Shown: positions 3,217-26,750 of the stretch, one piece after another
How positions within the stretch are numbered: the stretch's first letter is position 1
How the letters are laid out: every line of letters starts with the position of its first letter
Source of the DNA: Candidatus Iainarchaeum sp.
GTDB lineage: Archaea > Iainarchaeota > Iainarchaeia > Iainarchaeales > 0-14-0-20-34-12
NCBI GenBank assembly: GCA_030649345.1
Contig: JAUSKK010000036.1
Location: 1 to 32,000, forward strand
Reading direction: 5' to 3'
Length of the DNA: 32,000 bases
Notes under the pieces: generated by a model
Database searches by the model: none
Seen by the model: only the letters and a program-made list of their open reading frames with translations
Told to the model about the DNA's origin: nothing
Position numbers and translations under genes: made by a program

Positions 3217-3337
3217 GCAGGAGTACCCAAGCGGCCAACGGGGCAGGACTTAAGTTCAAAGAATATTTACAAAGGAGAGAAGCGATAAGTGATCCTGTGG
3301 CTTAGTGCATTCGAAGGTTCGAATCCTTCCTCCTGCA
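3217..3337 (+). tRNA. tRNA-Leu(UAA) with a 37-nt intron at the canonical 37/38 position, no encoded CCA
   Basis: Acceptor stem GCAGGAG/CTCCTGC. Anticodon stem CAGGA(3244-3248)/TCCTG(3293-3297). Loop CTTAAG..A with anticodon TAA at 3251-3253. T arm GAAGG-TTCGAAT-CCTTC (3313-3329). Long variable arm and discriminator A3337. Confidence 0.85.
3255..3291 (+). other. tRNA intron with bulge-helix-bulge-like splice motif
   Basis: A 4-bp helix CTTA(3249-3252)/TAAG(3286-3289) is flanked by 3-nt bulges AGT (3253-3255) and TGA (3290-3292). Removing 37 nt leaves an 84-nt class II tRNA. Confidence 0.7.
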
Positions 3338-5589: not shown

Positions 5590-5680
5590 GCAAAAAACCT
5601 AATTTTCTCACTGTAACCAGTAAATTTAAATACTTCGGCTTTCATAATTATAATATACTATTGTCTTTATCGGGTTAAAT

Positions 5681-6433
5681 ATGGCAGAATCTACTTTGTA
5701 TAGTTTATTGGAAAAACTTGGATTAACAGAATATGAATCCAAAACTTTGAACAGTTTATTTGAATTACGAGAAGCCAAGGCTCCTGAAATTAGCAGAAAT
5801 GCTCAAGTTCCTAAAACGCGGGTGTATGATGTCTTAGATGGTTTGGTTAAAAAAGGGCTGATTATTGAAATTCAAGGAAGACCTAAAAGATACCGAATTA
5901 TTGAAGCCAAAAAAACTTTGCAAAAATTAGTAGAAGAAAAGAAAAAAGAAATTGAAGGATTGCAATTTGAAATTGAAGCCATCCGAGAAGAAACTTTATT
6001 AGGTAAAAAAGGCCTGGACTTGGAAGGCGAAAAAGTAATGAAAGTCAAAGATCGAGAAGACTTTATTCGAATTTTAGCTCAAGAATTAGAAGAAGCCAAA
6101 GAAAGTATTTCTGGATTTACAGAATTAGATAAAGAACATGGAGCTTTAGCTAAAGCCATTGAAAAAATCAAAAACAACAATGTAAAAATAAAAATGATTC
6201 ACCATAAATCTCATGACAAAGTCAAAGAGTATGCCAAACATTCAGTGGAAAACAAACAATTCGATCACGGTTTAAATGCATTTATTGTAGATAATAAAAA
6301 AATAATTTTAGCTTTAAGCGACTTAAAACAAGAACGACCAGAATACTATTTTACAATCTGGAATCACAAACCTATGGCTAATTTGTTAACCAACCACTTT
6401 GATTCCTGCTGGCAAAAAGCCAAAAGTATTTAA
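5681..6433 (+). CDS. TrmB-family transcriptional regulator
   Basis: N-terminal wHTH LEKLGLTEYESKTLNSLFELREAKAPEISRNAQVPKTRVYDVLDGLVKKGLI, followed by a coiled coil and a C-terminal TrmB-like domain. Confidence 0.7.
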   Translation: MAESTLYSLLEKLGLTEYESKTLNSLFELREAKAPEISRNAQVPKTRVYDVLDGLVKKGLIIEIQGRPKRYRIIEAKKTLQKLVEEKKKEIEGLQFEIEAIREETLLGKKGLDLEGEKVMKVKDREDFIRILAQELEEAKESISGFTELDKEHGALAKAIEKIKNNNVKIKMIHHKSHDKVKEYAKHSVENKQFDHGLNAFIVDNKKIILALSDLKQERPEYYFTIWNHKPMANLLTNHFDSCWQKAKSI

Positions 6434-11029: not shown

Positions 11030-11296
11030 ATGAATAATTGTTCATTTTGTGGAACTAACATTCAACAAGGTACTGGAATTATTTTTGTAAAAAGAACCGG
11101 AAAACGTTTTGATTTCTGTTCACGAAAATGTGAAAAAAATTTAATGAAATTAAATCGAAATCCAAGAAATTTCAAATGGACCCAAGAATACTGGAAAGAA
11201 AAAGGATTCCAGCAAGAAAAAGCAGGAAAAACTGAAACAGCTAAAAAAGAAGAAACTACAGAAAAGAAAGCTGTGAAACGAAAAAGAAAAAAGTAA
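11030..11296 (+). CDS. rpl24e: 50S ribosomal protein L24e
   Basis: CSFCGTNIQQGTGIIFVKRTGKRFDFCSRKCEKN zinc-ribbon N-terminus and a lysine-rich tail. Confidence 0.9.
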   Translation: MNNCSFCGTNIQQGTGIIFVKRTGKRFDFCSRKCEKNLMKLNRNPRNFKWTQEYWKEKGFQQEKAGKTETAKKEETTEKKAVKRKRKK

Positions 11297-11421
11297 ACAA
11301 TTCTGTGGTGCTGCAAGCACAATAAAACAAAATGTTTTATGTGCATCAAAATCAGCAGATTTTGATTGCACCACGTTCGACCAACCGGAACCCCGGTTGA
11401 AACGAAAGCGAAAAAAGTAAA
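11274..11421 (+). repeat. 24-nt direct repeat of the L24e 3' end (11274-11297 / 11398-11421, 22/24) bracketing a 100-nt multi-hairpin insert
   Basis: Read directly: TGAAACGAAAAAGAAAAAAGTAAA versus TGAAACGAAAGCGAAAAAAGTAAA. The insert stems are given in the findings. Confidence 0.8.
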
Positions 11422-12506: not shown

Positions 12507-14252
12507 ATGATTCGACAACCGATTATTGTAGTCATGGGCCATATTGACCATGGAAAAACCAAATTATTGGACAGAATTCGCGGAACCACTATAGCTGAAA
12601 GAGAAGCTGGAGCGATTACGCAACATATTGGTGCTACTGAATTACCTGAAAATAAAATTCAAGCTATTTCTGGAAACTTATTAAAGCAATTTGGATTTCA
12701 ATTAGAAATTCCAGGCTTATTGTTTATTGATACGCCTGGGCATGATGCATTCACGAATTTAAGAAGACGCGGTGGAAGCATTGCCGATTTATCTATTTTA
12801 GTTGTAGACTGCATGCAAGGAATTCAACCGCAAACTTTGGAAGCCATTCAAATTTTGAAAACATTCAAAGTACCGTTTGTGGTAGCGTTTAATAAAATTG
12901 ACAAATTACAAAACTGGCAAAGCAAGACAGGTTCGTTTTTAGAAAATGAAAAAATTCAAACTACCCATGCCCAAGAATTATTGGATAAAAAAATCTATGA
13001 ATTGGTTGGAAGATTGTTTGAATTAGGATTTGAAGCAGAACGCTTTGATCGAATTCAAGATTTCCGAAAACAAATAGCTATTGTTCCTTTGTCGGCTGTG
13101 GTGGGAGAAGGAATTCCTGAATTGTTAATGATGCTGTCTGGTTTAAGTCAAAAGTTTTTGAAAAACAAATTGGAAATCGGAGAACAAGAAAAATGCAAAG
13201 GCACTGTCTTGGAAGTCAAAGAAGACAAAGGCCTAGGAACAACATTGGATGTAATTTTATACGAAGGATCTTTACGCGTAGGAGATATCATTGCTGTTGG
13301 AACCAAACAAGGAGTCACTGAAACCAAAATTCGTACTTTACTCAAACCCAAACCATTATCGGAAATACGGGATGAAAAAAATGTATTCAAATCAGTAGAA
13401 TCTGTAAGCGCGGCTTGCGGAGTAAAAATTTCCGCTCCAAACTTAGAAAATGTTTTAGCGGGTTCTCCAGTATTGGATGCCAGTGTGGAATCACGGCAAC
13501 AAATATTGGATGAAATTAAATCCATTAAAATTTCAACCGAAGATATTGGCTTAGTCATCAAAGCAGATACTTTAGGATCCTTGGAAGCATTGATTGGATT
13601 AATGAAAAACAATCAAATTCCAGTACGATCCGCAGATGTAGGAATGGTTACCAAAAAAGATGTCATGGAAGCTTTGGCTTCAAAAGAAAAAGATGTTTAC
13701 CATGGCTGTATTGTTGCATTCAATGTAGAAATTGATAAAACTGCAGAAGACGAAGCCAAAAAAAGAGAGATTCAATTATTTTCAGGAAAAGTAGTGTACA
13801 CCATTATTGATGAATATTCAAATTGGGTAAAAACTCAAAAAGATCAAATGAAAAAAAACAAGTCTACTTTCTTGATAAGTCCAGCAAAAATTGAAGTATT
13901 GCGAGGCTTTGTTTTTAGAAGATCCGATCCAGCCGTGGTTGGCGTAAAAGTATTGATTGGAAAAATTAAATCCAAAACAACATTGATTAATGAAAATACA
14001 ATGGTACGATTGCAGGGATTGCAGGAAGAAAAAAAGGCTGTTGAATCTGCAGAAAAAGGAAAAGAACTGGCAGCATCCTTAGAGAATGCAGTCATTGGCC
14101 GAAACTTGTTTGAAGGAGATATATTGTATACGTATATTCCAGAAAGCCAATTTGAAGAAATTCCAAAGTATTTGGAGCTAAATTCTGAAGAATTGGCCTT
14201 ACTGGAGGAAATAAAAAATGTTCAAATCAAACATAAAGAGAACGGAGGATAA
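12507..14252 (+). CDS. infB: Translation initiation factor aIF5B (IF-2 homologue)
   Basis: GHIDHGKTKLLD, DTPGH and NKID GTPase motifs; about 580 aa. GTG 12498 is an alternative start. Confidence 0.9.
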   Translation: MIRQPIIVVMGHIDHGKTKLLDRIRGTTIAEREAGAITQHIGATELPENKIQAISGNLLKQFGFQLEIPGLLFIDTPGHDAFTNLRRRGGSIADLSILVVDCMQGIQPQTLEAIQILKTFKVPFVVAFNKIDKLQNWQSKTGSFLENEKIQTTHAQELLDKKIYELVGRLFELGFEAERFDRIQDFRKQIAIVPLSAVVGEGIPELLMMLSGLSQKFLKNKLEIGEQEKCKGTVLEVKEDKGLGTTLDVILYEGSLRVGDIIAVGTKQGVTETKIRTLLKPKPLSEIRDEKNVFKSVESVSAACGVKISAPNLENVLAGSPVLDASVESRQQILDEIKSIKISTEDIGLVIKADTLGSLEALIGLMKNNQIPVRSADVGMVTKKDVMEALASKEKDVYHGCIVAFNVEIDKTAEDEAKKREIQLFSGKVVYTIIDEYSNWVKTQKDQMKKNKSTFLISPAKIEVLRGFVFRRSDPAVVGVKVLIGKIKSKTTLINENTMVRLQGLQEEKKAVESAEKGKELAASLENAVIGRNLFEGDILYTYIPESQFEEIPKYLELNSEELALLEEIKNVQIKHKENGG

Positions 14253-14255
14253 ATA

Positions 14256-14316
14256 AATGGTTCCAAAATTCGAAAGAATTTTGAAACTTTAAAAAACACG
14301 GAGGTTTTTTAATGGC
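14256..14316 (+). repeat. 61-nt module, copy A (84% identical to 24835-24895): inverted repeat + AAACTTTAAAAAA + G-rich box + TTTTTTAATG
   Basis: A by-eye alignment gives 51/61 identities. Inverted repeat CAAAATTC (14264-14271) / GAATTTTG (14276-14283). AATGG occurs at both ends (14256 and 14311). Confidence 0.8.
14288..14296 (+). promoter_or_regulatory. TATA-like TTTAAAAAA exactly 24 nt upstream of the S6e ATG
   Basis: The same 9-mer lies at the same 24-nt distance from the ATG at 17303 (spt4) and 24867 (dnaJ). Promoter function is not proven, because GGAGG between the box and the ATG could instead be an SD. Confidence 0.4.
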
Positions 14317-14734
14317 CGCGCCAAAATTAGATCAAAAAGTTGGAATGAATTTAGTAATCTCAGACCCAAAGACTGGAAACAGTTACAAAAAAGATACAGA
14401 ACAGCCTGTTTTTTTAAATAAAAAAGTTGGTGAAACTGTAGACTTAAGCACAGTTGGATTGCAAGGCTATAAAGCTTTGATTACCGGCGGAAGTGACAAA
14501 GATGGTTTTCCATTAAAGCCTACTTTGCCTGGAAGTGCAAGAAAAAAAGTATTGATTTCCCGAGGAGTTGGTTTACGACAAACCATTAAAGGCAGCCGGA
14601 GAAGAATTCGAGTCCGAGGAAATCTTATTGCAGATGACGTACGACAAGTGAATTTAAAAATCACAGAATATGGAACACCTACATTGGAAACCATTTTCCC
14701 AAAAGCACCCAAAGCAGAAGACCAAGCAAAATAG
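14312..14734 (+). CDS. rps6e: 30S ribosomal protein S6e
   Basis: NLVISDPKTGNSYKK...GGSDKDGFPLKP...RRRIRVRGN are S6e motifs. An internal ATG at 14345 is an alternative start. Confidence 0.9.
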   Translation: MAAPKLDQKVGMNLVISDPKTGNSYKKDTEQPVFLNKKVGETVDLSTVGLQGYKALITGGSDKDGFPLKPTLPGSARKKVLISRGVGLRQTIKGSRRRIRVRGNLIADDVRQVNLKITEYGTPTLETIFPKAPKAEDQAK

Positions 14735-14747
14735 TTTTTGCGGGTCA

Positions 14748-14767
14748 CAGAAAACCAAGGTTTTCTG
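14748..14767 (+). terminator. 8-bp hairpin after S6e
   Basis: CAGAAAAC-caag-GTTTTCTG. The left arm repeats 11/12 nt of the S6e 3' end (14715-14726). Confidence 0.35.
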
Positions 14768-14813
14768 AAGAAACAAAAAAAGAATAATAAAATAAATGGA
14801 TGTGAACTAACTC

Positions 14814-16037
14814 ATGGCTGGAAAAAAAGTAAAAACAGACAGCAGTGCACAATGCGTGCAAGCTGAAGTGAATATTGGTTTAGCCGGCCATGTAGATGCA
14901 GGAAAAACAACTTTAACTCAAGCATTGAGTGGAAAATGGACAGACACGCATAGTGAAGAATTAAAGCGCGGAATTTCAATACGATTGGGATATGCGGATA
15001 TTGGAATTTATAAATGCAGTAAATGCAAAGAATTTAATTATTCGAATACCAGTGAATGCCCACAGTGTAAATCTCCAGGTATTTTAGACCGCAAAGTTAG
15101 TTTTGTGGATGCGCCAGGGCATGAAACATTAATGACTACTATGTTAAGTGGAGCTGCACTTATGCAAGGCGCTTTGTTGGTAATTGCCGCCAATGAAACT
15201 TGCCCGCAAGCACAAACCATTGAACACTTGAATGCATTAATTATCAGCGGCATCGAGCAAGTCATTGTAGTGCAAAGCAAAGTAGATTTGGTCACCGAAG
15301 AACGAGCATTGGAAAGTCATAAAGAAATTAAAGAATTTTTGAAAGACACCCAATACAAAAACGCGCCCATTGTACCCATTGCAGCACATTTCAAAATCAA
15401 TATTGATATATTATTGGAAGAAATTCAAAAAAGTATTTCTTCGCCGAAATTTGATTCTACAAAACCATTGAAAATGTTTTGTGCACGATCTTTTGATATT
15501 AATAAACCAGGAACGCTTCCTTCAGAATTACATGGAAGTGTTTTAGGCGGAACCATTATTCAAGGAACCATCAAAAAAGGAGACACCATTGAATTAACTC
15601 CTTGGCTGGATGGAAAACAAATTCAAACCAAAGTTATTGAAATTCGAACCAGCGATGGAGTCTTAGAAGAAGCCAAGCCAGGCGGTTTAATTGCAATAGA
15701 AACTTTATTGGATCCAAGTTTAGCACAAAACGATCAGCTTAAAGGCCAAAACATTGGAGCTGTAGGAATATTCTCTGAACCTACCACAGTCTTGAAAATA
15801 GAAATGCATTTTTTGGATCGAGTTGTTGTCAGCAGTGCTAAACGAGTAGTGCAAGGAGATGACTTGGTTTTAACAGTTGGAACTGCAACTTTGTTGGGAA
15901 TTGTTTCCAGCGTAAAAGGAAATACTGTAGTTGTTGCTTTGAAGAAACCAGCCGTAGCTGAAAAAGAACAAAAACTTGCAGTCAGCAAACGAGACCAAAT
16001 GAAATGGAGATTAATTGCTTACGCAATCAATAAATAA
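14814..16037 (+). CDS. eif2g: Translation initiation factor aIF2 gamma subunit
   Basis: GHVDAGKTTL, the zinc-ribbon insert CSKCKE...CPQCKS, DAPGH and SKVD; 407 aa. Confidence 0.9.
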   Translation: MAGKKVKTDSSAQCVQAEVNIGLAGHVDAGKTTLTQALSGKWTDTHSEELKRGISIRLGYADIGIYKCSKCKEFNYSNTSECPQCKSPGILDRKVSFVDAPGHETLMTTMLSGAALMQGALLVIAANETCPQAQTIEHLNALIISGIEQVIVVQSKVDLVTEERALESHKEIKEFLKDTQYKNAPIVPIAAHFKINIDILLEEIQKSISSPKFDSTKPLKMFCARSFDINKPGTLPSELHGSVLGGTIIQGTIKKGDTIELTPWLDGKQIQTKVIEIRTSDGVLEEAKPGGLIAIETLLDPSLAQNDQLKGQNIGAVGIFSEPTTVLKIEMHFLDRVVVSSAKRVVQGDDLVLTVGTATLLGIVSSVKGNTVVVALKKPAVAEKEQKLAVSKRDQMKWRLIAYAINK

Positions 16038-16130
16038 TCAAAACTATCGAGGCAAAGCCGAAGATAGTTTAAAGTACCGCCGGCTTTCCGGCGAAACGGA
16101 GATTAATTGCTTACGCAATCAATAAATAAT
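16001..16130 (+). repeat. 38-nt direct repeat of the aIF2-gamma 3' end (16001-16038 / 16093-16130, 37/38) bracketing a 54-nt two-hairpin insert
   Basis: GAAA[T/C]GGAGATTAATTGCTTACGCAATCAATAAATAAT occurs twice with a 92-nt period. Confidence 0.85.
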
Positions 16131-16610
16131 ATGCAATCAATCAATAAAAAAATGAATATTAAAAATGAAAAAAAATTAAACAGTGCTGCTGAAGTGCAAC
16201 GAAAGCAGCACGTGCTACCAACCCGCACGCGGGTTGCAATTGACACAAATATGTTGTTAAGTGTCAGTCAATTAAAATTGGATATTTTTCAAGAAGTAGT
16301 CAACGAATTTGGAGAACAAAATTCTGAAATTGCAATCCCAGATAGGGTATTAAATGAATTAAAAAAATTGGCAGAAATTGAAAAAAACAAAGATGCCATT
16401 TTAGCTCAAGCCTGGTTAAACCAGAAAAAATTTAAAGTTTTGAAAGCCCAAAAGGCCGATAATGCAGATAAAGCCCTTTTAGAGCTTGCAAAACAAGGGT
16501 TTATCATAGCTACCAATGATAAAGTCTTACGAAAAAGTATAAAAAACGTTAATGGCAAGAGTATTTATATTAGAAAACGAAAAGTACTAGACTTTTCAGA
16601 AACATTCTAA
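16131..16610 (+). CDS. PIN-domain protein (conserved archaeal Fcf1/Utp24-like neighbour of aIF2-gamma and rpoE')
   Basis: VAIDTNMLL...IIATNDKVLRK are acidic PIN motifs. The track start, TTG 16107, lies inside the duplicated aIF2-gamma end. ATG 16131 or 16152 is more plausible. Confidence 0.75.
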   Translation: MQSINKKMNIKNEKKLNSAAEVQRKQHVLPTRTRVAIDTNMLLSVSQLKLDIFQEVVNEFGEQNSEIAIPDRVLNELKKLAEIEKNKDAILAQAWLNQKKFKVLKAQKADNADKALLELAKQGFIIATNDKVLRKSIKNVNGKSIYIRKRKVLDFSETF

Positions 16611-16640: not shown

Positions 16641-17258
16641 ATGTATGAATTGGTTAAAATTAAAGACAAAGTAAGAGTGCCGCCTGCACAATTTGGAAAA
16701 AATTTAACCGAAGCTTTGCTGACTTTAACTCAACAACAATACGAAGGATTATTGGATGAAGATTTAGGAGTCATTGTAGCTATCACGCAAGCCGTAAAAA
16801 GCGGTGAAGGAAAAGTTGTATTGGGAGACGGAGCAGCCTACTACGAAACTGAATTAGAAATGGTAGTATACAAGCCGAGAATGCAGGAAGTCATAGAAGG
16901 AGTTGTCAGCGAGACCACAGAATTTGGTGCATTTGTACGCATTGGCCCAATTGACGGCTTGGTTCATGTCAGTCAAATAATGGATGAATTCATCAATTAC
17001 GATAGCAAAAATACTTGCTTTGTTGGAAAAGATTCTGGAAGAAAATTAAAAAAAGAAGATGCAGTCACAGCCAGAATTGTAACCATTAGTTTAAAGGGAG
17101 CCATTGCAGATTCCAAATTAGGATTAACCATGCGCCAGCCTTTTTTAGGAAAAAAAGAATGGAATACTGGAGCACCTATTGAAAAGAAACCCATGGTTGC
17201 AAAAAAAGAAAAAATGGAAAAGCAGAAACCAGACAATAGACCTGCAGAAAAAAAATAA
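16641..17258 (+). CDS. rpoE: DNA-directed RNA polymerase subunit E' (Rpo7)
   Basis: MYELVKIKDKVRVPP N-terminus and S1 domain EGVVSETTEFGAFVRIGPIDGLVHVSQI. A GAGGTG SD lies upstream of ATG 16641; the track ORF starts at GTG 16632. Confidence 0.9.
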   Translation: MYELVKIKDKVRVPPAQFGKNLTEALLTLTQQQYEGLLDEDLGVIVAITQAVKSGEGKVVLGDGAAYYETELEMVVYKPRMQEVIEGVVSETTEFGAFVRIGPIDGLVHVSQIMDEFINYDSKNTCFVGKDSGRKLKKEDAVTARIVTISLKGAIADSKLGLTMRQPFLGKKEWNTGAPIEKKPMVAKKEKMEKQKPDNRPAEKK

Positions 17259-17262
17259 GGTG

Positions 17263-17330
17263 AATTTTAAATGAATTTAAAATTTAAAAAAAATTTTAAA
17301 ACTTTAAAAAACCGGGGGTTTTTTAAATGA
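17263..17330 (+). repeat. 10-nt direct repeat TTTTAAATGA (17265-17274 / 17321-17330) around a 46-nt AT-rich promoter-like insert at the spt4 start
   Basis: Exact repeat with a 56-nt period. Inverted repeat AATTTTAAA (17263-17271) / TTTAAAATT (17276-17284). AAACTTTAAAAAA at 17299-17311. Confidence 0.5.
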
Positions 17331-21504: not shown

Positions 21505-21936
21505 CTAGTCTTCGATTTCCAAGCCAAATTTTTGATCCAATTCTCGTGCAGTTTCTTCCATTCTTCTAAAAATTAAGTTCACTTCTTCTTGAATTTCTTT
21601 AATCGTACGAGACATACTTCGCGAACGCGCTAAATAAAATCTTCCTTCTCGAACAATTAAGCCAGAAAGCAAAAGCTTATTCAAATGATTAATCACAGCA
21701 CCGCGAGACATATTTACTTTATCCGCAATTTCTGGACAAGTCAAAAGCTTGCCTTGCTCAGTAGCTTGAACAAGTACTCGAAAAATAGCAAAAGCCAACT
21801 TGTCTTTGTCAATGGGTTCAAATAAACCAAAACTTTGACAAATCCAACCCAGCTCTTGTTCTACATCATGCTGAAAAGGCTGTTCTATACGTTTAATAAC
21901 TATTTTAAACGAAGTACGGCGCACAGTCATATACAA
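21505..21936 (-). CDS. Winged-helix transcriptional regulator (ArsR/MarR-like fold), divergent from grpE
   Basis: LTCPEIADKVNMSRGAVINHLNKLLLSGLIVREGRFYLA is a clear HTH plus wing. It has an acidic C-terminal helix. Confidence 0.65.
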   Translation of the reverse strand: MYMTVRRTSFKIVIKRIEQPFQHDVEQELGWICQSFGLFEPIDKDKLAFAIFRVLVQATEQGKLLTCPEIADKVNMSRGAVINHLNKLLLSGLIVREGRFYLARSRSMSRTIKEIQEEVNLIFRRMEETARELDQKFGLEIED

Positions 21937-21968
21937 GTACTCTTAATGGAATAAATTTAAAAACATTT

Positions 21969-22002
21969 TGATTAAACAGTTTGATAAATGATTAAAGAGT
22001 TT
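21969..22002. promoter_or_regulatory. Candidate operator: 14-nt direct repeat TGATTAAA[C/G]AGTTT spaced 20 nt, with a third TGATAAA half-site between
   Basis: 21969-21982 and 21989-22002 are identical at 13/14 positions. They lie in the 86-nt divergent spacer between the wHTH gene and grpE. Confidence 0.45.
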
Positions 22003-22022
22003 AGACAAATAAGGTAGTTTTT

Positions 22023-22636: not shown

Positions 22637-24523
22637 ATGAGTAAAGTAATTGGAATCGATTTAGGAACCAGTAATTCAGCAGCTGCAGTCTTGGAAGCAG
22701 GAAAACCAAAAATTATTCCAAGCGCAGAAGGAACTTCTTTATACGGAAAAGCATTTCCAAGTGTTGTGGCATTCACAAAAGATGACCAAGTTTTGGTGGG
22801 TGAACCGGCACGCAGACAAGCTGTCAGTAATCCAGATAAAACAATTATGGCAGCCAAGCGAAAAATGGGAACTACTTTCAAATACAAGATTGGCTCGAAA
22901 GAATTTACGCCTCAACAAATTAGTGCATTTATTTTACAGAAAATTAAAAAAGACGCAGAAGAATTTTTAGGCGAAAAAGTAGAAAAAGCTGTAATCACTG
23001 TGCCAGCTTATTTTGATGACAATCAAAGACAAGCAACCAAAGATGCAGGAGAAATTGCAGGCTTGGAAGTTATTCGAATTATTAATGAACCCACAGCTGC
23101 TGCTTTAGCCTATGGCTTAGATAAAAGCAATCAAGACATGAAAATTTTAGTATTCGATTTCGGCGGCGGAACATTGGATGTAACTGTAATGGAATTAGGC
23201 CATGGAGTCTTTGAAGTCAAATCAACCAGCGGAGACACTCAATTGGGCGGCACAGACATGGATAAAATTTTAGTGGATTATTTGGTGGCAGAATTCAAAA
23301 AAGAACAAGCTGTTGATTTAAGCAAAGACAGTGTAGCTATGCAGAGATTACGAGAAGCTGCAGAAAAAGCCAAAATTGAATTAAGTACAGTTTTGGATAC
23401 ACAAATTAATTTACCGTACATTACAGCTACTCCGGAAGGCCCGAAACATTTGGCCCTGAGTTTAACAAGATCAAAATTAGAACAATTGGTCGAGCCCTTA
23501 ATTCATAGATGCGAAAAACCAGTCCAGCAAGCTTTGGCGGATGCCAAAGTATCCCCGGGAGATGTAGCTAAAATTATTTTAGTCGGCGGACCAACCCGAA
23601 TGCCTGCAGTACAAAAGTTTGTGGAAAAAATTACAGGAGCCAAACCAGAACGAGGCATTGACCCAATGGAATGTGTAGCTATGGGTGCAGCCATTCAAGC
23701 CGGAGTTTTAGCTGGAGAAGTTAAAGATGTTTTATTATTGGACGTAACACCCCTAAGTTTAGGAATTGAAACCTTGGGTGGAGTGTTTACTCATTTAATT
23801 GAACGCAATACAACCATTCCAACCAAAAAAACTCAAATATTTAGCACAGCTGCAGACAACCAAAATGCAGTAGATATTCATATCCTGCAAGGAGAAAGAC
23901 CTATGGCAGTAGACAACAAAAGTTTGGGCAGATTTATTTTAGATGGAATTCCTCCAGCACCTCGCGGTGTTCCACAAGTTGAAGTCATGTACGATATTGA
24001 TGCCAACGGAATTTTGGATGTTAAAGCCAAAGATTTAGGCACAGGCAAAGAAAAAAGCATCAAAATTGTTTCTCCGCAAAAATTGGATAAAGAAGAAATT
24101 GAGCGAATGAAGCAGGAAGCGGAAAAGTTTGCAGAAGCGGATCAAAAGAAAAAAGAAGAGATTGAAACTTTGAATATGGCAGACAACACAGTTTATGGGA
24201 CTGAAAAGGTGTTGAAAGAATTGAGCGGGAAAATTTCTGCAGAACAAGAAACAGAAATTAAAGAAAAAAATGAAACATTAAGAAAATTAGTAAACGAGCC
24301 AACCAAAGATGTTGCAAAAATTAAAACAGCTTTAGATGACTTGAATGCATTCGTGCAAAAAATCAGTACAGAAATGTATCAAAAAGCCGGAGAACAATAC
24401 CAGCAACAAAATCAAGGAGAACAAGGAAATCCCGGACAAGAAGAAGAACACAAGCACAAAAAGAAAAACAAAGACGGAAAAGTGGTTGACGCGGAGTTTA
24501 AGGAAGACGAAAGCAAACAATAG
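22637..24523 (+). CDS. dnaK: Chaperone DnaK (Hsp70)
   Basis: [23 protein letters not shown] and [10 protein letters not shown]; 628 aa. Confidence 0.95.
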
Positions 24524-24659
24524 TGCTGAACGCAGTGAAGCACTACGACCTACCAACCGCGCGATTAAAACGCAGCGTTTTAATGCGCATTTAAACAAAA
24601 GTTTAAATCGCGTCCGCGGTTGACGCGGAGTTTAAGGAAGACGAGAGCAAACAATAGTG
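24484..24659 (+). repeat. 42-nt direct repeat of the dnaK 3' end (24484-24525 / 24618-24659, 41/42) bracketing a 92-nt GC-rich multi-hairpin insert
   Basis: GGTTGACGCGGAGTTTAAGGAAGACGA[A/G]AGCAAACAATAGTG occurs twice with a 134-nt period. Confidence 0.9.
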
Positions 24660-24688
24660 GAAAAGATAGAACAAATGGAGTTGGTCAT

Positions 24689-24817
24689 ATGAATCCTGAA
24701 GTGAAAGCAAAAAAAGTTGAACCTGTTTTGAAGAATCAACCGAAAGCAGAAGATGTAGTTATTCTTGGCCAAGCAAAAAAATCAAGAGATTACTTGAATA
24801 ACTTTATGGCAGCATAA
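24689..24817 (+). CDS. Hypothetical 42-aa protein between dnaK and dnaJ
   Basis: ATG preceded by GGAG 9 nt upstream. Sequence MNPEVKAKKVEPVLKNQPKAEDVVILGQAKKSRDYLNNFMAA, with no recognisable motif. Confidence 0.3.
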   Translation: MNPEVKAKKVEPVLKNQPKAEDVVILGQAKKSRDYLNNFMAA

Positions 24818-24834
24818 TTAATCAGGTAGAAATC

Positions 24835-24895
24835 AATGGTTCCAAAATTCTTTTGAATTTTGAAACTTTAAAAAATAAAGGAATTTTTTAATGGC
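24835..24895 (+). repeat. 61-nt module, copy B (see 14256-14316) directly upstream of and including the dnaJ start
   Basis: Inverted repeat CAAAATTC (24843-24850) / GAATTTTG (24855-24862). TTTAAAAAA at 24867-24875. AATGG at 24835 and 24890. Confidence 0.8.
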
Positions 24896-26080: not shown

Positions 26081-26335
26081 ATGAAAGTAATTGTGGAAAC
26101 CACCAAGATGTCCACCAAAGGACAAGTTATTATTCCGAAAGATGCACGCACATTTATGGAACTTGAAAAAAACACGGTTTTTTCAGTTTTAGCTTTGGAT
26201 CAAAACACGCTTATTTTAAAAAAATTAGATAAAGAAAAATTGCTAAGAGAGTTTGAAAATATTCGAGCACGCGTCAAGCATAAACTCTCTGAAAAGGGAG
26301 TGGATGCTATTGTTCACAAAGCACGCAAAGGTTAG
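26081..26335 (+). CDS. AbrB/SpoVT-family antitoxin
   Basis: MSTKGQVIIPKDAR is the swapped-hairpin AbrB motif. The protein is small and lies directly upstream of the PIN gene, overlapping it. Confidence 0.75.
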   Translation: MKVIVETTKMSTKGQVIIPKDARTFMELEKNTVFSVLALDQNTLILKKLDKEKLLREFENIRARVKHKLSEKGVDAIVHKARKG

Positions 26336-26750
26336 AGTTGTTCTAGACACCAACATTGTTGTTTCGGCTTTGATCGAAAAACGCGGTTATCCAGCGGAAA
26401 TTTTTAGAAAACTTATTTCTGAAGAAATTGAATGTTTTACCAGCCAAGAAATACTGGACGAAATTGAAGATGTATTTAAAAGAACAGAAATTGTCAGCCG
26501 AACTTTACAGGCCGATCGGGAATCCATATTAACAAATTTCAAGATTTATGCGCAATGGATTTCAATCAAAACCAAAGTAAAAACAGTACTGGAAGATTCA
26601 GATGATGATAAATTCATTGAATGCGCTTTGGACGCCAAAGCAGATTTCATTGTCAGCGGAGATCGACATTTGCTTAAACTAAAGGAATTCAAAGGAATAA
26701 AAATTATTAAAGCTAAGGAATTTATAGACACAATAAGCGGCTGTTTGTAA
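26304..26750 (+). CDS. PIN-domain toxin (VapC-like)
   Basis: VVLDTNIVVSAL...DDDKFIECALDAKADFIVSGDRHLL. The track ORF starts at 26253; ATG 26304 is preceded by GGGAG and gives a 32-nt overlap with the antitoxin. Confidence 0.75.
   Translation: MLLFTKHAKVRVVLDTNIVVSALIEKRGYPAEIFRKLISEEIECFTSQEILDEIEDVFKRTEIVSRTLQADRESILTNFKIYAQWISIKTKVKTVLEDSDDDKFIECALDAKADFIVSGDRHLLKLKEFKGIKIIKAKEFIDTISGCL

Follow-up and report, generated by a model that had tools for sequence, protein, structure and literature searches.

A twin-palindrome cassette repeated at the start codons of three unrelated genes in Candidatus Iainarchaeum sp.

In a 32,000-nt stretch of the genome of the DPANN archaeon Candidatus Iainarchaeum sp. 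(assembly GCA_030649345.1, contig JAUSKK010000036.1, positions 1 to 32,000 of the forward strand; the whole stretch is called the window here), we describe a cassette of about 55 nt that stands directly upstream of three unrelated genes, S6e, spt4 and dnaJ, all three copies being sense-oriented and each of them ending exactly at the start codon. The cassette carries two adjacent palindromes, the second of which presents a Shine-Dalgarno (SD)-like box in its loop, and two of the copies fill operon junctions that are tight or overlapping in the nearest informative relatives. The explanation that we favour, with a confidence that falls somewhat short of even, is a copied, lineage-specific intercistronic element with twin palindromes within operon mRNA, giving an SD sequence and a start codon to the downstream gene.

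Results

The repeat was first noticed as an ungapped match of 51 out of 61 positions between 14256-14316 and 24835-24895, and this figure from a first-pass annotation was reproduced together with its block pattern, namely 16 identical positions, a differing 4-nt loop, 21 identical positions, an 8-nt box with six differing positions, and 12 identical positions up to the end. The pair (copies 1 and 2) is the top 61-mer self-match of the window, while the best self-matches in 30 dinucleotide-preserving shuffles reached 39-43 positions compared with the 51 observed. The downstream genes are S6e (PF01092; MDO8428439.1) and DnaJ (MDO8428455.1), as named in the annotation, both recorded for a metagenome-assembled genome of a Candidatus Diapherotrites archaeon; run SRR13727527 supplied short Logan contigs of identical sequence. 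A lack of further copies had been named as a point that would tell against the module. A third copy does lie in the window at 17265-17330, directly 5' of the gene encoding the 65-residue Spt4/RpoE'' (PF06093), revealing 68% ungapped identity to copy 1 according to the repeat finder and an E-value of 2e-10 when scored by an nhmmer profile of the three copies. The sequence read from the source genome amounts to 34 kb, to which the copy number of three refers, compared with none by chance. The annotation's claim of a portable module ahead of unrelated genes has gained a copy (at spt4, in addition to those at S6e and dnaJ), while its shared TATA promoter with leaderless transcripts has fared less well, as discussed below. 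The cassette is a real yet lineage-restricted repeat.

Where one palindrome had been annotated, each copy holds two, inverted repeat 1 (IR1; 10-13 bp across the copies) followed by inverted repeat 2 (IR2; of the A6/T6 type), and two adjacent hairpins are predicted in all three copies. In copy 1, IR1 (14259-14288, plus strand) reads GGTTcCAAAATTC-GAAA-GAATTTTGaAACT, showing 12 pairs with one C/A mismatch and a predicted RNA hairpin of -9.4 kcal/mol. IR2 (14289-14312, plus strand) follows directly as TTAAAAAAC-ACGGAG-GTTTTTTAA; its 5' arm overlaps the TATA-like TTTAAAAAA at 14288-14296, its loop contains the GGAG of the SD sequence GGAGG (14300-14304), and its 3' arm consists of T6 (14305-14310) and AA, the final A being the A of the ATG. 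Copy 2 has the same IR1 arms (24838-24867, plus strand) around a TTTT loop in place of GAAA, followed at 24868-24893 on the same strand by an IR2 of the form TTAAAAAAT-AAAGGA-ATTTTTTAA and the dnaJ ATG (24891-24893). In copy 3, IR1 occurs as a variant (17276-17300, plus strand; TTTAAAATTT-AAAAA-AAATTTTAAA) with a weak predicted hairpin of -3.1 kcal/mol, and the stretch is also readable as a tandem repeat of AAAAYTTTAAAAAA; its IR2, TTTAAAAAACC-GGG-GGTTTTTTAAA, has an 11-bp stem predicted at -7.3 kcal/mol and leads into the spt4 ATG at 17327-17329 (together 17303-17329, plus strand).

In copies 1 and 2 alike, TTTAAAAAA begins 24 nt upstream of the ATG, just as annotated. The variable box to its right corresponds to the loop of IR2 plus the closing pair and is G-rich in all three copies (GGAGG, AGGAA and GGGGG), with a G content of 19% on the plus strand; its distance from the ATG is 7-8 nt, the SD spacing of the other genes in the window being 6-8 nt. 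The segment AATTTTG-AAACTTTAA-...GGAGG (14276-14304 and its equivalents in the other copies) presumably resembles the gene 10 leader of phage T7, AATTTTGTTTAACTTTAAGAAGGAG, which is used in expression vectors and contains a bacterial translational enhancer, but this likeness is probably a coincidence of AT-rich sequence.

All ten differences between copies 1 and 2 fall into the 4-nt loop of IR1 and the 8-nt box, that is, the IR2 loop plus its closing pair, in agreement with their annotated placement, and the remaining 49 positions are without any difference (P about 7e-10 for randomly placed differences). The single stem change between these two copies is a compensatory one from C-G to T-A, the closing pair of IR2 being C-G in copy 1, T-A in copy 2 and CC-GG in copy 3. 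In IR1 of copy 3, both C-G pairs of the other copies are replaced by T-A and the C/A mismatch has become a T-A pair; we do not count this as strong covariation, because every G/C of IR1 became A/T, by which pairing is kept automatically, and because the reading as a tandem repeat is possible. The variation shows constrained arms and free loops, as had been stated for both palindrome arms in the annotation. Judged by sequence, this pattern alone would fit RNA hairpins, a DNA palindrome bound by a protein, or the recognition site of a mobility enzyme alike.

At its left-hand side, every copy is joined to an ATG preceded at 6-8 nt by an SD-like box particular to that copy, all on the plus strand. 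In copy 1 (left flank 14244-14259), GGAGG at 14244-14248 lies within the end of the aIF5B gene (stop codon 14250-14252), with the old ATG at 14257-14259; in copy 2 (24827-24838), AGGTAG at 24827-24832 stands before the old ATG (24836-24838); and in copy 3 (17259-17273), GGTGA at 17259-17263 stands just past the Rpo7 stop codon (17256-17258), with the old ATG at 17271-17273. Such SD-like boxes precede only 2-5% of the ATGs in the window, and the left-hand SD and ATG look like the former start site of each gene. From the old ATGs, plus-strand mini-open reading frames (mini-ORFs) extend over 11 codons in copy 1 (MVPKFERILKL; from 14257, stop at 14290-14292), six codons in copy 2 (MVPKFF; from 24836, stop at 24854-24856) and 19 codons in copy 3 (from 17271, stop at 17328-17330), where the stop codon overlaps the spt4 ATG as ATGA. 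Direct repeats that contain ATG flank the cassette, being 5 nt long and the same in copies 1 and 2 (AATGG at 14256-14260 and 14311-14315, and at 24835-24839 and 24890-24894), and 10 nt long in copy 3 (TTTTAAATGA at 17265-17274 and 17321-17330).

No close relative suited for an alignment of the spacers was found in the databases, the best matches being 60% identical for S6e and 54% for DnaJ, and S6e of the nearest relatives displaying 53-60% identity. Informative relatives were a Logan locus from run SRR28822788 (L127) and three loci (L128-L130) from GCA_035288565.1 and assemblies of the ENA, all of which keep the gene order L7Ae-S28e-L24e-NDK-dcd-aIF5B-S6e-aIF2gamma-PIN-Rpo7-Spt4-S24e-S27ae. 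In these relatives aIF5B and S6e show a 4-nt overlap or a 12-nt gap, and Rpo7 and Spt4 a 1-nt overlap or abutting ends, whereas the corresponding junctions of the window measure 59 nt and 68 nt and both consist of cassette. This contrast between tight and cassette-filled junctions identifies copies 1 and 3 as lineage-specific insertions, internal to the operon and at formerly coupled junctions.

Read from the cassette ATG, the S6e gene spans 14312-14734 (plus strand). By homology, however, the N-terminus of the relatives' S6e, MNLVISDP, corresponds to the ATG at 14345, so that reading from the cassette ATG (14312) extends the protein by 11 residues of lineage-specific inserted sequence. Homology places the starts of spt4 and dnaJ at the cassette ATG itself, the N-termini being conserved from there on and a later in-frame start being absent. 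In what are presumed to be their ancestral start regions, S6e and dnaJ are similar to each other (AAATAAATGGC and AAATCAATGGC), and the left end of copy 2 is S6e-like (AATGGTTCCAAAATT compared with AATGGCCGCGCCAAAATT in S6e), which fits an origin of the module at the S6e locus as the annotation had suspected.

Searches in Rfam 15, in gathering as well as E-value mode, left the cassette unmatched, the best hit being CRISPR-DR26 with 19.9 bits compared with a gathering threshold of 39 (E=0.45 in a 301-nt search). A solitary CRISPR repeat (28 nt of IR1, GTTCC...GAAAC) was rejected, as a significant score, an array and cas genes are all wanting. Against the window and 136 loci (about 1 Mb), the three-copy nhmmer profile recovered only the three copies and the identical Logan contigs, with nothing in the relatives' loci L127-L134 or in the 2 kb past the window end. 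The pattern AAACTTTAAAAAAN{6,9}TTTTTTAA is of too low complexity and gave at least 120 matches in a scan of the genome collection, mostly bacterial chance matches; a strict pattern, AAAATTYN{3,7}RAATTTTRAAACTTTAAAAAA, gave four matches in the JGI metagenomes, all of them coding or low-complexity chance matches, and neither the strict IR1 pattern nor the core pattern gave any match in IMG/VR. With the other junction inserts of the window, described in the following, the cassette shares low-complexity similarity only.

Other features of the window

At three further junctions, near-identical direct duplications of the 3' end of the upstream gene surround a strongly folded insert: between L24e and NDK (11274-11421; 24 nt duplicated with 92% identity, 100-nt insert, -37 kcal/mol), between aIF2gamma and PIN (16001-16130; 38 nt with 97%, 54-nt insert, -20 kcal/mol) and after dnaK (24484-24659; 42 nt with 98%, 92-nt insert, -24 kcal/mol). 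At the same places, the genes of relatives overlap or follow closely on each other. The three inserts are without a family match in Rfam, and Logan contigs from the same sample end exactly at two of the three duplications. Beside the second of them, the PIN_9 gene (in the segment 16107-16250) displays an N-terminal extension of about 30 residues compared with its homologues, which start MA..KVA.DTNML; this extension starts within 16130-16152, where the duplicated aIF2gamma 3' end occurs a third time as a partial copy, and the position of the ancestral PIN_9 ATG is ACG in both full copies of the duplication. From the duplicated dnaK end to copy 2 of the cassette (24660-24834), there is a 42-codon ORF (24689-24817, MNPEVKAKK...) without a Pfam match.

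The spacer between S6e and aIF2gamma (14735-14813) has a length of 79 nt, compared with 18-34 nt in relatives, with T5 directly past the S6e stop codon and an AT-rich, TATA-like AATAATAAAATAAAT (about 14783-14797) located 17-31 nt upstream of the ATG of aIF2gamma; possibly, this lineage is in the course of splitting the ancestral operon into separate units. A divergent spacer at 21937-22022, between a gene for an ArsR/MarR-like winged helix-turn-helix (wHTH) protein (21505-21936, minus strand) and grpE-dnaK, carries the direct repeats GATTAAACAGTTTGAT and GATTAAAGAGTTTAGA, a candidate operator of the chaperone operon that is unrelated to IR1. Just past dnaJ, at 26081-26750, an 84-codon ORF that has no Pfam match runs into the start of a gene with a PIN_3 domain (26253-26750), and the two look like a toxin-antitoxin pair. 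A tRNA gene of 121 nt, presumably containing an intron, is located at 3217-3337 (plus strand); it reached 42 bits in the E-value mode of Rfam and was missed by ARAGORN and by the gathering mode with default filters. The S3Ae gene also lies within the window, its database homologues belonging to other organisms.

Discussion

According to the explanation favoured here, a cassette of about 55 nt would have been copied into the 5' junctions of S6e, spt4 and dnaJ, with the former SD and ATG, IR1, IR2 with the SD loop, and a re-created start codon following each other in this order in every copy. It would be transcribed as an internal segment of the operon mRNA, as is presumably the case for the same genes in relatives where they overlap, and the RNA would fold into two stem-loops representing the ribosome-binding region of the downstream gene, hairpin 2 displaying the SD in its loop and the AUG at the foot of its stem. 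The old ATG would now open a mini-ORF of 6-19 codons through hairpin 1, and ribosomes coming from the upstream gene could unfold the structure and pass to the new start, a relay that would replace the ancestral overlap of stop and start codons. A likeness to translational coupling is seen in the relatives' ATGA or TAAATG overlaps at the same junctions and in the mini-ORF of copy 3, which ends overlapping spt4 as ATGA. Hairpin 1 may also influence the stability or processing of the mRNA. The cassette could have spread by copy-and-paste at start sites containing AATG, be it through microhomology, a gene-conversion-like event or an unspecified mobility function; the similar ancestral start regions of S6e and dnaJ, together with the S6e-like left end of copy 2, make copying by microhomology or a gene-conversion-like event plausible.

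Several points weigh against this explanation. The copies number three and lie within 34 kb of the genome. Stability is low for the IR2 hairpin (-2.5 to -7.3 kcal/mol) and very low for IR1 of copy 3 (-3.1 kcal/mol), the complementarity of the latter after replacement of all G/C by A/T being automatic and hence no strong evidence of covariation, while the identical stem sequence in copies 1 and 2 would equally fit the recognition of DNA by a protein. Synteny is the sole argument for co-transcription. The stop positions of the mini-ORFs are not conserved, which weakens the idea of a relay and, in copies 1 and 2, sets the cassette apart from upstream mini-ORF relays, the relay being one that we only infer. 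Finally, GAAACTTTAAAAAAC resembles the genome's own boxes composed of a B recognition element (BRE) and a TATA element, which leaves room for an internal promoter.

Such a portable internal promoter was the view of the first-pass annotation and ranks second to the intercistronic cassette, though we regard it as rather doubtful. IR1 would then be the operator of a dimeric regulator, GAAAC together with TTTAAAAA the BRE/TATA, and T6AA an AT-rich proximal element; transcription would start at or beside the ATG or about 6 nt downstream of it, and S6e, spt4 and dnaJ would share a promoter inside former operons. In composition the cassette agrees with this, an A-rich BRE and an 8-bp AT-rich box (GAAAC and TTTAAAAA) being present in all three copies, and GAAACTTTAAAAAAC comes close to the two most promoter-like boxes in the window, AAATTTAAATAC at 5625, ahead of the TrmB gene (5681-6433), and AAATTTAAAAAC at 21956, ahead of grpE. 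The distance from TATA to ATG is 24 nt in all three copies, although the box differs in length. Change is seen in the 4-nt centre of IR1 and in the 8 nt past the TATA, places where the operator of a dimer and the spacer between TATA and start would tolerate it. In the case of S6e, canonical initiation near 14318 (a C-G step) would place the conserved ATG at 14345 behind a leader of 27 nt, and the spacer between S6e and aIF2gamma, with T5 past the stop codon and an AT-rich box before aIF2gamma, hints at a break-up of the operon in this lineage.

It is the geometry, the intervening SD and the pairing of TTTAAAAAA within a palindrome that speak against the shared TATA promoter with leaderless transcripts. 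Archaeal promoters have the centre of the TATA box some 27 nt ahead of the transcription start, the BRE near -33 and an AT-rich element near -10 (PMC5316973). The cassette is like this core promoter in its A-rich element, its 8-bp AT-rich TTTAAAAA and its AT-rich stretch, but TTTAAAAA lies at -24 to -17 from the ATG, centred at about -20.5 compared with about -27 in archaea (PMC5316973), making the distance to the start codon about 6 bp short for a leaderless mRNA; moreover, the box is followed downstream by an SD and itself forms one arm of a palindrome. Better TATA-like boxes of presumptive leaderless genes, in the window and in relatives, start at -29 to -32. Canonical starts near 14318, 17333 and 24897 would fall about 6 nt inside the ORFs, which is tolerable for S6e only, with its ATG at 14345, and not for spt4 and dnaJ, both being without a later in-frame start. 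The SD-like box, at ideal spacing, would sit upstream of the transcript start and be useless there, and its position between the TATA-like box and the ATG implies that the translated transcripts begin further upstream. Pairing with T6AA can by itself account for the conservation of TTTAAAAAA. IR1, for its part, is unlike the repeats in the spacer between grpE and the wHTH regulator gene, and its candidacy as an operator of the local wHTH/TrmB regulators was rejected for this lack of similarity.

We consider it improbable that the cassette is a selfish miniature insertion element in the manner of a miniature inverted-repeat transposable element (MITE), a repetitive extragenic palindromic (REP) sequence or a palindrome-associated transposable element (PATE), whose hairpins would be recognition sites of a transposase encoded elsewhere and which would survive only where the start codon was regenerated, being tolerated by the host and of no further function to it. 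The lineage-specific insertions at junctions that are otherwise tight are in line with such an element, and so are flanking direct repeats that depend on the locus and match the target (AATGG versus TTTTAAATGA), stems conserved with loops free to vary as in REP-type elements, and the further hairpin-rich inserts with flanking duplications in the same window. A MITE, however, has terminal inverted repeats, and these are absent, the ends TTCCAAAA... and ...GGTTTTTT not being inverted copies of each other and the palindromes being internal and adjacent; direct repeats are present, though their length appears not to be fixed (5 nt in copies 1 and 2, which share theirs, and 10 nt in copy 3). Derivation of a PATE or REP from IS200/IS605 is contradicted by IR1 (CCAAAATTC/GAATTTTG) and IR2 (TTAAAAAAC/GTTTTTTAA) being unrelated, unlike the ends of IS200/IS605 elements, and by the presence of flanking direct repeats, since elements of that type have similar subterminal hairpins at both ends, recognised by a single TnpA/RAYT, and insert without target duplication. 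Furthermore, all three copies share their orientation relative to the gene, copy 2 with its S6e-like left end looks like a segmental copy instead of a fresh insertion, and copies were not found in about 1 Mb of other loci, the JGI metagenomes or IMG/VR. Among the 22 ORFs of the window with Pfam data, no transposase (including Y1), integrase or Cas gene was seen. A broader version, to which we give no better a chance, makes the cassette a new kind of archaeal miniature mobile element that inserts at start codons with its own ribosome-binding site and start, splits translationally coupled genes and represents part of a more extensive spread of hairpin-rich insertions through this DPANN genome, with target duplications of 5-42 nt; such variable and unusually long duplications would point to a mechanism other than a classical transposase, for example template switching or repair-templated synthesis. 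Least probable of all, and unlikely as the main function, is a terminator or insulator, in which the hairpins and T6 would end the upstream transcripts (those of aIF5B, rpo7 and the dnaK side) and separate the expression of neighbours. T6 is present in all three copies with the hairpins before it, and a consensus scan flagged IR1 as terminator-like, on the minus strand only. On the plus strand IR1 is followed by AAACTTT and no T-run, it has only three G-C pairs, and T6 is a stem arm. With T6 located between SD and ATG, the downstream gene would have no promoter to use if transcription ended at this point, and runs of T5-T9 inside sense coding sequence of the window indicate that T6 is not a reliable stop.

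Returning to the intercistronic cassette, we file it under the general class of short intergenic repeat cassettes. Correia elements, enterobacterial repetitive intergenic consensus (ERIC) sequences and REP sequences with their hairpin-forming doublets (REPINs) are short hairpin repeats (<150 nt) between genes, bracketed by short duplications, that are co-transcribed and alter expression; elements of this type can lie in operons, overlap the starts of ORFs, and supply promoters or RNA structure (cited in PMC3575422). The cassette resembles them as a short hairpin repeat with flanking duplications, a likeness that we draw partly from general knowledge, and differs in having no sequence similarity to them, no terminal inverted repeats, only three copies, a strict orientation and start-codon position, two unrelated palindromes and no known transposase to go with it. 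Matus-Garcia, Nijveen & van Passel (2012) define putative mobile promoters as non-coding sequences found ahead of non-homologous genes of the same genome and sharing at least 80% identity over 50 nt or more; how they spread is not known, and many of them may, according to the authors, be RNA elements instead of promoters (PMC3575422). Copies 1 and 2, being 83-84% identical over 61-66 nt ahead of the unrelated S6e and DnaJ, fall within this definition (PMC3575422). Different from putative mobile promoters, the cassette abuts and includes the ATG, carries a ribosome-binding site, is archaeal, and is found with two copies inside a conserved operon; that survey used positions -150 to -50 and thereby left out the sequence beside the start codon (PMC3575422).

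With three copies, the biological weight of the finding is modest. The AT-rich, TATA-like box beside a start codon may be the arm of a hairpin, which is a warning for annotation, as is the S6e start, shifted here by an insertion. Together with the duplications at neighbouring junctions, the cassette offers simple markers for insertion mechanisms in uncultured archaea. If the explanation favoured here is true, a reduced DPANN genome would be rewiring expression inside ancient translation and transcription operons whose genes normally overlap, by means of a short, copyable cassette that would uncouple neighbouring genes and bring a fresh ribosome-binding site and possibly a promoter.

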